Source of the DNA: Escherichia phage VTCCBPA_211
Direction: 5' to 3' (one strand)
Sequence record: PP989838.1
Length of the DNA: 64,000 bases
Shown: one piece after another, positions 6,214-8,244 of the stretch
Layout: the number at the start of each line of letters is the position of its first letter
Numbering within the stretch: position 1 is the first letter of the stretch
The notes under the pieces: model-generated
Seen by the model: the letters and a program-made list of their open reading frames with translations, nothing else
Told to the model about the DNA's origin: nothing
Databases searched by the model: none
Program-made: the position numbers and the translations under genes

Positions 6214-8244
6214 ATTTGTGGCATCGTATTAGCTGGCGGTAATCTGTCAAGCACCGATTTAGACGTATTCAACCAACTCTTTTATGCTGGAGTATTCCGA
6301 GGACAACACTCCTCTGGTATCTTTGGTCAGCGTAAAAGTACTAAGGAAGTCTTCACTTATAAAGAAGCTCTTCCTTCTTTCGCATTCATCCTACAAGATG
6401 AGTACAAGAAGCACACCACCGGTGAAACAGCTTACACTGTAGCACCTTCATGGATTGTTGGTCACAGCCGTCATGCAACGAAAGGTGCAGTTAACGCCAA
6501 GAACGCCCATCCTTTCCAACATGGTAACATCACTCTGGTTCATAATGGAACCTTGATGGACCAAGATCTGTTACCTGACAGCAAAAACTTCGAGGTAGAC
6601 AGTGAGAACATCTGCCACTCTATTAACACTATTGGTGCAGCAGAGACTATTCAAAAGCTGGATGGTGCTTTCACCTTAATCTGGCATGATGCTTCTGATA
6701 ACCGTCTTCATATCATCCGTAACGAAGAGCGTCCTTTCCATCTCGCACGTTGTAACAGAGATTGGTTTGGTGCTTCTGAAGAAGATATGTTGATGTGGAT
6801 TCTGAAGCGTTCTAAGTCCCATAAGAACCGTATTGACGAGCATTTTGAATGTAAAATTGGTACAGAATACATCTTTGATATGTCAAACAACAGTATGACT
6901 CTGGTTGAAGAGGTCGCCCACGAGCTTCCGGTTTTTACGGTAGCCAATCGTTGGGGCAATTATTACTCGAACAACTACAGCCAAAGCAACTATCAAAGTT
7001 CCTCAAAAAGCAGTACAAGCAATCCTTACGACACGAAGCCGGGCGTGACAGCGGCAGACGTTCGTCGAAGAAACGCAGTGGTAAGTCAAAACAAAATCGC
7101 AAGCGATCGAAACATTGATATTCGCCGCGATATGACTGTGGAAATCACTCCGCATGAGTTTGTTCCTTATGCAACTGCCGGTGCTGTTCCTTCTCGTGGT
7201 AAGATGATTGGTTATATCTACGATGAGAAATCTCAAGAGTACATCGAAGGTGATGTTCATAACGTAGATATTAAGGCTTATCAGGATGCCCTGAAAGACC
7301 CTAAAATTGTTTACCGTGGGACAGTATCCTGCATCTCCGAAGTCAATGCTATGGTCCGTTTAGTGATCACAGCAGGTCGTTTTGTTGACCCATCTCTGGA
7401 GAAAAAGGAGCCTGAGTCTACTACTGCTGACTTTGATGATGATATCCCTTTTGACATGAATGATAGTTTCGTCAACAAGAATGGCGTTACTATCACTCGT
7501 AAATTCTGGGAAGCACACTCTCATGGTGATTGTGGTGGTTGTGACAAGCACATTGATTGGAAGGATGCACCTAAAGCAGTCTTCGCATATCAGTGCTATT
7601 GGCATACTGAATGTCTGGAAGGTTTGACTAAACCTAAAGATGAAGAAGAGGAGGAAACTCCTATTGGTGTTTGTGAAATCTGCGGTGAAGTTAAAACGGA
7701 GAATGAGTTCGATGAAGAACTTAGTCGTCTTCGTGGTGAAGATATCTGTAAAGTCTGCGCTGTAGATGTAAAGAAGAAGGTATCTAATGCTACGATCAAA
7801 GATGGTTATGTCTGGATTAAAGCAACAGATACAACAAACGCCCGTCGTCCTGAGTTTGCTTTACGTGTAACTGAAGATATGATTGGTCGTATGACTGTAT
7901 TACCTTCCTCAGCGAAACAGACAGGCATCACTCTGGAGGATGTTGTTGATGCTTATGTTGAGAAACGTAGCAACAGTATTTTTGCAATCTCAACTAAGCC
8001 AAAAAAGGAGGAACCTGCTGAGAAAGCAGGTGTGTTTCCTGAATCACGAACAGCTCTCCGCAAAACTGTTGTCAGCTTCGACGGAAACCGAAGCACTGAC
8101 TTCACCAAAGCCATGTGGTCAACCCTCGGATACTGCTCAGAGTGTTTTAAGCAGATTCCGTGGCGCGATGCTGAAAGTTGTACGCTTGGTTCTATGAATC
8201 AAGTTTATTGTAATTCTCCTAAATGTTCATTGAATAGAGGTTAA
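6214..8244 (+). CDS. class-II (Ntn) glutamine amidotransferase domain protein with long Cys-rich C-terminal extension
   Basis: In-frame translation upstream of the track ORF gives CGIVLAGGN ... RGQHSSGI ... HSRHATKGAVNAKNAHPFQHGNITLVHNGT, the GATase-II signature; the catalytic Cys codon at 6217 is preceded by ATT with an AGGTGG SD 8 nt upstream; C-terminal CxxC pairs. Confidence 0.6.
   Translation: MCGIVLAGGNLSSTDLDVFNQLFYAGVFRGQHSSGIFGQRKSTKEVFTYKEALPSFAFILQDEYKKHTTGETAYTVAPSWIVGHSRHATKGAVNAKNAHPFQHGNITLVHNGTLMDQDLLPDSKNFEVDSENICHSINTIGAAETIQKLDGAFTLIWHDASDNRLHIIRNEERPFHLARCNRDWFGASEEDMLMWILKRSKSHKNRIDEHFECKIGTEYIFDMSNNSMTLVEEVAHELPVFTVANRWGNYYSNNYSQSNYQSSSKSSTSNPYDTKPGVTAADVRRRNAVVSQNKIASDRNIDIRRDMTVEITPHEFVPYATAGAVPSRGKMIGYIYDEKSQEYIEGDVHNVDIKAYQDALKDPKIVYRGTVSCISEVNAMVRLVITAGRFVDPSLEKKEPESTTADFDDDIPFDMNDSFVNKNGVTITRKFWEAHSHGDCGGCDKHIDWKDAPKAVFAYQCYWHTECLEGLTKPKDEEEEETPIGVCEICGEVKTENEFDEELSRLRGEDICKVCAVDVKKKVSNATIKDGYVWIKATDTTNARRPEFALRVTEDMIGRMTVLPSSAKQTGITLEDVVDAYVEKRSNSIFAISTKPKKEEPAEKAGVFPESRTALRKTVVSFDGNRSTDFTKAMWSTLGYCSECFKQIPWRDAESCTLGSMNQVYCNSPKCSLNRG

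Follow-up and report, generated by a model that had tools for sequence, protein, structure and literature searches.

The window analysed here is the whole stretch of 64,000 nucleotides of Escherichia phage VTCCBPA_211 (PP989838.1), a phiEco32-like coliphage (Kuravirus) whose bases 5000-10000 are 96% identical to the genomes of NJ01, ES17 and MN05. The gene under study encodes a glutamine amidotransferase and lies within a cassette of ligase genes. Its product consists of a catalytic N-terminal domain, here called the head, and a long cysteine-rich C-terminal tail. In the original prediction the tail was regarded as an unrecognised, metal-binding partner for the ammonia handed over by the head, possibly a non-standard acceptor. 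The gene and its head are laid out as follows.

6135-6213, plus strand: 5' leader of the amidotransferase gene, with a hairpin, a mini open reading frame (mini-ORF) of 9 codons and an AGGTGG Shine-Dalgarno sequence
6214-8244, plus strand: complete coding sequence (CDS) of the amidotransferase, 676 amino acids, with an ATT start followed by Cys2 and a stop codon at 8242-8244
6214-6942, plus strand: class II (N-terminal nucleophile, Ntn) glutamine amidotransferase domain, residues 1-243, from Pfam, alignment with GlmS and AlphaFold2 (AF2)

The amidotransferase gene and its head

On comparative grounds the start of the gene is the ATT at 6214, and the frame from there to the stop codon encodes the 676 amino acids originally predicted. 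The reading frame is open from 6214, with an in-frame TAG two codons 5' of the ATT (TAG AAA ATT TGT), and the AGGTGG Shine-Dalgarno sequence is found 7 nt before the ATT. The assignment is made because the frame stays open for 113 codons upstream of the annotated start, where it encodes the beginning of the amidotransferase, and because the homologues begin with MCGIVLAGG. Thirteen homologues from other phages can be aligned along the whole 676 amino acid protein, and it is those with complete N-termini that show this beginning. The same ATT and an invariant upstream leader are found in five Kuravirus genomes, while ATG, ATT or GTG stands immediately 5' of the catalytic Cys codon in other lineages.

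The mechanical list of open reading frames starts the amidotransferase at TTG 6553. The GenBank and RefSeq records (NJ01, Ptacy1479) start it one codon past this TTG, at an internal ATG (6557 in the window), which gives proteins of 562-563 amino acids; the NJ01 counterpart occupies 6557-8245 of locus L001. A cluster of 211 proteins of 563 amino acids also starts about 113 codons late. With these codons missing, the public models lose Cys2, R86 and N111-G112, and they have been named GlmS, PurF or 'aminotransferase'. A clone of the ORF as annotated in the public records examined would be catalytically dead, being about 113 residues short and without the catalytic Cys.

Positions 6166-6221 (56 nt, comprising leader and the first 8 nt of the CDS) are 100% identical across the five Kuravirus genomes, in two of which the amidotransferase proteins are only 68-70% identical (up to 32% different). 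The mini-ORF, encoding MKGFTLQVD, runs from ATG 6182 to a TAG at 6209-6211 and ends 2 nt 5' of the ATT start. Together, mini-ORF and leader suggest termination-reinitiation coupling or some other translational control of the weak AUU start. Alternatively, read-through of the TAG would yield a propeptide of 12 residues. The hairpin GGGUGCCUCUGACAAAGGGGCAC, at about 6142-6162, is situated directly 3' of the stop codon of the preceding Amidoligase_2 gene, and its pairing is kept through compensatory changes in the divergent relative L005. Because it is not followed by a run of T, the hairpin may be a processing or stability element rather than a terminator.

Judged by its sequence, the head is a complete class II Ntn glutamine amidotransferase domain with predicted glutaminase activity. 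Pfam GATase_6 (55.1 bits, cutoff 27) and GATase_7 (27.4 bits, cutoff 25) matched residues 76-193. When the family profile was aligned with the glutaminase domain of E. coli GlmS in a PDB profile search, R86 corresponded to Arg73 and H110-N111-G112 to positions 97-99 (Asn98-Gly99); D129 probably corresponds to GlmS Asp123, as indicated by the conserved VDSEN motif. R86, N111-G112 and D129-S130 are invariant in sets of 24 and 36 sequences, and the catalytic Cys directly follows the start codon in all lineages. The predicted local distance difference test (pLDDT) values of the AF2 head are mostly above 90.

The NCBIfam comparison gave a better value for GlmS (2e-11) than for EgtC (2.5e-4), and Pfam ranks GATase_6 and GATase_7 above GATase_4. 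All NCBIfam bit scores are far below their cutoffs (GlmS 43 against 381, PurF 25 against 350, AsnB 21.5 against 267 and EgtC 20.5 against 218), and the head is therefore not an equivalog of any of these four. It appears somewhat nearer to true glutaminase domains than to EgtC; sequence does not tell donation of ammonia from hydrolysis of a gamma-glutamyl amide.

Architecture and variability of the tail

The tail (residues 244-676) gave no significant match in Pfam, NCBIfam or the PDB sequence search, and has thus rightly been called unrecognised. The best PDB sequence match, between its first zinc module and the first finger of the LMO4 LIM domains, was not significant (E = 0.07). A known synthase was also looked for in the C-terminal region, and no match was found. 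AF2 models of the tail alone (mean pLDDT 77.5) and of the full-length protein with 36 sequences (mean pLDDT 84.0) gave the same order of parts, in which small folded modules are separated by four linkers with pLDDT below 50. The presence of a long extension is confirmed, with a division that differs from the roughly 200 and 450 amino acids first proposed: the amidotransferase domain ends near residue 243 and the extension has about 430 amino acids. The parts of the tail are, in order:

6943-7050, plus strand: disordered low-complexity linker rich in Ser, Asn and Tyr, residues 244-279; pLDDT below 50 at 245-278, length and sequence varying in the alignments
7051-7401, plus strand: helix (280-298) and five-strand OB-fold barrel (308-391) with a helix between strands 3 and 4, from AF2
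7429-7455, plus strand: motif DFDDDIPF-D resembling the tip of the protein that binds single-stranded DNA (SSB), residues 406-414, inside a disordered acidic linker (397-417; 398-413 in the AF2 models)
7465-7629, plus strand: zinc module 1, residues 418-472; a beta-hairpin and a Trp-helix, then C440-x2-C443 ... H464-x2-C467
Residues 474-481: disordered acidic linker, from AF2
7663-7800, plus strand: zinc ribbon 2 (C4), residues 484-529; C487-x2-C490-x21-C512-x2-C515, then a helix; pLDDT 85-90
7801-8001, plus strand: small alpha/beta domain, residues 530-596; strands 532-539, 547-553, 580-585 and 589-594; pLDDT about 90
Residues 598-613: disordered linker, from AF2
8059-8241, plus strand: zinc module 3, residues 616-676; C641-x2-C644 ... 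C666-x4-C671, plus C656

Zinc modules 1 and 3 are considered repeats of one unit because their hidden Markov models (HMMs) match each other reciprocally. The common unit can be described as G-x2-[FV]-T-x3-W ... C-x2-C-x3-I-x-[WF]-x-D-[AV] ... [CH]-x2-C. No family or fold match was found for the alpha/beta domain at 530-596, and some distant relatives have further CxxC pairs at its position instead. On one face of an OB strand lies the pair Glu345/His349, part of the motif EYIE-x-D-V-H-N (7243-7263, residues 344-350).

The cysteine motifs that first drew attention to the tail are all present: CGGCDKH at 440-446, CEICGEV at 487-493, CKVCAV at 512-517 and CSEC at 641-644, the last followed by C656, C666 and C671. 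Four CxxC pairs were found where 0.45 are expected, and at least four occurred in 136 of 200,000 shuffles. Cys makes up 13 of the 237 residues from 440 to 676 (5.5%), compared with 5 of 439 elsewhere in the protein and 1.0% in the long open frames of the window. In 14 homologues, which are 49-70% identical overall, H464 and 12 of the 13 Cys are invariant, C461 alone varying; the ligand sets C440/C443/H464/C467, C487/C490/C512/C515 and C641/C644/C666/C671 are thus invariant throughout. In the wider set of 36 sequences C440, C443 and C467 are still invariant, and H464 is replaced by Cys in distant relatives, a swap that would be expected of a metal ligand. The four Cys of zinc ribbon 2, which none of the 14 close homologues lacks, occur in 25-31 of the 36. 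No Pfam zinc-finger model matches the tail. From this pattern of conservation the tail very probably binds zinc, as originally suggested, with about three Zn predicted per monomer.

A search with the tail profile among 1.84 billion representative proteins gave 24 matches. Twenty-three were full-length proteins with an N-terminal amidotransferase of the MCG type and one was a fragment of 52 amino acids from the OB region; the arm therefore appears to occur only behind this amidotransferase. The relatives have 1-3 HMM-detectable copies of the module, 2-9 CxxC/H pairs and, counted from the Cys, a length of 372-749 amino acids. HMMs detect the OB-fold and the zinc modules in the nearer half of the loci. 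Most of the distant members retain a CxxC...CxxC at their end, and a few are without any Cys pairs. A cellular origin was considered and rejected: among 185,579 species with one genome each only 9 loci were found, almost all on short contigs or contigs of metagenome-assembled genomes.

The fold matches of the tail were to non-enzymatic OB domains only. The structural neighbours of the OB-fold are OB and S1 domains that bind single-stranded DNA (ssDNA) or RNA (DNA-ligase OB, RPA, SSB, POT1, PriB and S1). E. coli SSB and PriB were among the Foldseek matches, and the BFVD neighbours include phage SSB-like proteins. These neighbours favour a tail that binds ssDNA or RNA, for example at replication forks, in which OB-fold, linker and tip are a captured SSB-like unit and the cassette modifies nucleic acid or a bound substrate. 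The order of OB-fold, disordered linker and DFDDDIPF, which is that of bacterial SSB, points in the same direction, as does the mildly basic zinc module 3 (net +3). Relatives of the amidotransferase are encoded in 27 IMG/VR loci, and in these viral loci the cassette usually adjoins primase-helicase and exonuclease genes. Since OB-folds and zinc ribbons are classic binders and the cassette is found among replication genes, nucleic-acid binding is a serious rival to the interpretation given below. Across the family, however, the OB domain and zinc module 1 range from neutral to acidic, with a median net charge of -2 to -6 for the former and 0 to -5 for the latter, varying with the sequence set. 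No support was found for homology between the OB domain and E. coli SSB, the profile-profile match being not significant (hhalign probability 37%, 16 columns, not topologically equivalent). Base-hypermodification genes were lacking among the genes examined and tRNA genes were lacking in the window. Taken together, binding of nucleic acid by the tail is regarded as rather unlikely.

To our knowledge, all characterised class II amidotransferases carry a fused acceptor domain. On this analogy the tail could be a cryptic metal-dependent acceptor or synthase that uses ammonia from the head to amidate a non-standard substrate. Points in favour are the strong conservation of the tail among close relatives, in which its Cys and His are invariant, the lack of a match to any known family, and the Glu345/His349 pair on the OB-fold, kept in nearly all of the 36 family members. 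The models indicate otherwise: no part of the tail appears to resemble an enzyme, the predicted folds being limited to an OB-fold, zinc knuckles of about 45-60 amino acids and a domain of about 65. An ammonia channel is hard to square with the roughly 35 disordered residues that link head and tail, and such an arrangement is a poor fit to an acceptor domain, which needs a fixed interface and channel. The modules, moreover, vary or vanish in homologues that keep the head and the cassette, and three potential acceptor ligases are encoded alongside. The proposal that the tail is the ammonia-accepting partner is thus not upheld, and a hidden synthase in this region is considered highly unlikely.

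The disordered linker after the OB-fold has the sequence TTADFDDDIPFDMND. All 8 residues of its motif DFDDDIPF (8 of 8) match the C-terminal tip of E. coli SSB, MDFDDDIPF. In E. coli this tip is the docking peptide that recruits at least 17 genome-maintenance proteins (PMC10018359), and its partners grip the free alpha-carboxylate of the terminal Phe (PMC10164576). The motif occurs once in the 64-kb window. None of D409, D410, P412, F413 and D414 varies among the 14 close homologues, and DD(D)[IV]PF[DE] is found at the same place throughout the Kuravirus-like clade and not in more distant relatives. The pLDDT of the motif is below 50 in both AF2 models; intramolecular docking was considered and rejected, since the value remains below 50 with or without the head.

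The tail has also been considered as a mimic of host SSB, in which the internal DFDDDIPF-D and the OB-fold would dock the amidotransferase, and with it the cassette of three ligases, onto the replication-fork proteins by which the SSB tip is recognised. Once there, the cassette might covalently alter a carboxylate of importance at the fork, for example by amidation or amino-acid extension of the C-terminal carboxylate of SSB or of its clients, or the tail could simply out-compete host SSB. Such mimicry is thought improbable. If true, it would be a new mechanism of host takeover and would provide a function for a cassette found in many podophages.

The surrounding cassette

The amidotransferase gene is flanked by the following members of the cassette.

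3601-4407, plus strand: COOH-NH2 ligase, phiEco32-type (type 2); Pfam PF14395, E = 2e-8; in 27 of 27 loci
4417-5034: gene of a protein of about 200 amino acids, PHROG 4877, between the COOH-NH2 ligase and Amidoligase_2 genes
5031-6134, plus strand: Amidoligase_2 (GCS2/GS-like carboxylate-amine ligase); Pfam PF12224, E = 5e-8
8690-9883, plus strand: RimK-like ATP-grasp ligase; weak matches to Pfam RimK and Dala_Dala_lig_C and to NCBIfam rimK_fam and MptN; PHROG 2599, E = 3e-187
10390-10809, plus strand: gamma-glutamyl cyclotransferase (GGACT/AIG2-like); Pfam PF06094, E = 4e-16; in most of the 27 loci

The COOH-NH2 ligase, Amidoligase_2 and the amidotransferase occur together in all 27 loci (27/27). 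In 23 of the 27 viral loci the Amidoligase_2 gene directly precedes that of the amidotransferase; in the remaining 4 it occupies another place in the cassette. The ATP-grasp gene is present in 24; of the other three loci, two end within or just past the amidotransferase gene. A homologue of the 4417-5034 gene is found in the 13 nearest loci (L003-L015), the other loci having a gap of about 500-1050 bp at that position. Its product, which has no Pfam, NCBIfam or PDB match, is an unrecognised core member of the cassette. PDB sequence searches with the conserved cassette proteins of no assigned function (397, 323 and 205 amino acids) gave no match.

The five-enzyme cassette is conserved in phiEco32-, LUZ24- and phiRIO-1-like phages and in many uncultured phages, and knowledge of it from sequence dates back to 2009. 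The operon was reportedly described by computation in Iyer et al. (2009) and Hardies et al. (2013), as one for the metabolism of gamma-glutamyl amide or unusual peptide bonds that possibly serves to modify peptidoglycan. Remodelling of peptidoglycan peptides or a block of superinfection has been put forward, without experiment, as its role, and no experimental study of the cassette was found in literature searches. The order of the cassette genes in the window is the same as in the LUZ24-like phage UFV-P2 (PMC3890496). Early proteins detected in SU10, a close relative, include the amidotransferase, the ATP-grasp enzyme and the cyclotransferase (PMC4281155).

The content of the cassette also bears on the activity of the head, which may be that of a gamma-glutamyl thiol hydrolase, similar to EgtC, acting on an intermediate built by the ligases, with the tail recognising the intermediate or its carrier. 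Both a gamma-glutamyl cyclotransferase and GCS2-like ligases are encoded in the cassette. There is a parallel to the ergothioneine (EgtA/EgtC) and butirosin (BtrJ/BtrG) pathways, in which gamma-glutamyl groups are added and removed. The neighbouring 'glutamine amidotransferase-like thiol peptidase' of which the Pfam description of Amidoligase_2 reportedly speaks fits the same pattern. For Hardies et al. (PMC4819975) the operon is one that metabolises gamma-glutamyl amide linkages. In sequence, however, the head resembles EgtC less than it does the GlmS, PurF and AsnB glutaminase domains. A hydrolytic head, which is compatible with a tail that serves for docking, is accordingly put forward as possible and tentative.

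Several other features of the region were noted. The Kuravirus-like clade (L003-L010) comprises the sole viral loci with two upstream genes of no assigned function (1433-2626 and 2637-3608). The primase-helicase gene of the window is in two pieces, with Toprim and the beginning of DnaB_C at 11029-12279 and the remainder of DnaB_C at 13013-13558, and the insertion between them carries an ORF for an HNH/NUMOD4 homing endonuclease (12385-12915). In NJ01 and phiEco32 the primase-helicase is one continuous ORF of about 610 amino acids. This insertion probably represents a mobile intron or the entry of a free-standing homing endonuclease. In the 81.6-kb contig L031, genes for a phosphoribosyl pyrophosphate (PRPP) synthetase and a member of the NAPRTase family are found at 500-3021, a few kb upstream of the cassette, and look like NAD salvage.

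Two further roles for the cassette were considered and found no support. For DNA hypermodification, a hydroxymethylase was absent from the NJ01 annotation and from Pfam and PHROG scans of selected ORFs of the window, where ThyX, a dCTP-deaminase-like protein and a dNMP kinase were the only genes of relevance. For a tRNA-directed role, the window contains no tRNA gene, although a gene for a CCA-adding enzyme is located nearby.

The role of the tail and comparison with known systems

With moderate confidence, the tail is interpreted as a flexible, non-catalytic docking arm that is probably directed to a protein, the chemistry being performed in trans by the ligases of the cassette. The sequence anatomy, its conservation, the linkage to the cassette and the predicted folds and disorder are results of the analysis, from which zinc binding, the lack of catalysis in the arm, its partner and the direction of the chemistry are inferred. 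A docking arm is preferred to an acceptor because the flexible modules, which are of a binding type, vary in number while head and cassette stay constant. A protein is preferred to nucleic acid as the partner because of the copy of the SSB tip and the neutral to acidic character of the OB-fold and module 1. If the arm is of a binding type and not an acceptor, it is among the neighbouring ligases that the acceptor should be sought.

In such a mechanism the initiator residue encoded by the ATT would be removed, leaving Cys2 as the N-terminal nucleophile. The head would then either donate ammonia from glutamine to a ligase that activates a carboxylate, or hydrolyse a gamma-glutamyl amide made by the ligases. 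In the former case the acceptors would be separate enzymes, Amidoligase_2 being the first candidate, followed by the COOH-NH2 ligase and the RimK-like ATP-grasp enzyme. The gamma-glutamyl cyclotransferase would complete the cassette. Meanwhile the arm would hold the head on a macromolecular partner, most likely a protein. The partner may be a host or phage protein that has a pocket for the SSB tip and is located at replication forks, one of the other cassette enzymes or the protein on which they act, or a combination of these. In the Kuravirus-like clade the SSB docking peptide on the arm is a concrete and testable link to the host SSB interactome.

Several points weigh against this interpretation or limit it. 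Nucleic acid is the classic ligand of OB-folds and zinc ribbons, and the closest OB matches bind it. Canonical binding of the SSB tip needs a free carboxylate; the phage motif is internal, although an invariant Asp comes after it. Occurring in the Kuravirus-like clade only, the motif leaves the arm of other relatives unexplained. The Glu345/His349 pair on the OB domain could be a ligand-binding, metal or catalytic site. How the domains contact partners is beyond what the AF2 models show. Finally, the founding description of the operon by Iyer et al. (2009) may mention a zinc-ribbon extension.

In the operon literature compared, which did not include Iyer et al. (2009), the protein figures as a plain amidotransferase, and the arm of OB-fold and zinc modules, the SSB-tip motif and the ATT start are not described. 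Within the same comparison the combination of a class II amidotransferase head, an OB-fold, an SSB-tip-like peptide and repeated zinc modules appears to be an undescribed architecture, restricted to phages as far as the sequence searches indicate. The operon itself agrees with that of phiEco32, LUZ24, PaP3, tf, phiRIO-1 and relatives (Iyer et al. 2009; Hardies et al. 2013, 2016) in gene set and order (COOH-NH2 ligase, the protein of about 200 amino acids, Amidoligase_2, amidotransferase, small ORFs, ATP-grasp enzyme and GGACT).

Bacterial SSB and the phage arm share the order OB-fold, disordered linker, DFDDDIPF. In SSB the tip is C-terminal, with a free carboxylate, whereas in the phage protein the motif is internal and 263 residues follow it. 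Zinc ribbons and the treble-clef fingers of LIM domains have in common with the tail the paired CxxC or HxxC knuckles, spaced 17-22 residues apart. The two fingers of a LIM domain are, however, separated by 2 residues, while an acidic disordered linker of 19 residues lies between the fingers of the phage tail.

GlmS, PurF, AsnB and GltB have the same N-terminal Cys after the initiator and the same Arg, Asn-Gly and Asp residues as the phage head. They differ in having a fused synthase; the phage protein is without a SIS, PRTase or PP-loop match and has an OB-fold and zinc modules in that place instead. The stand-alone class II amidotransferases of the EgtC and YafJ type resemble the phage head in having no fused synthase and in being encoded next to a ligase of the GCS2 type. 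These proteins are about 250 amino acids long and end without a C-terminal arm, unlike the phage protein, in which the arm follows the head.

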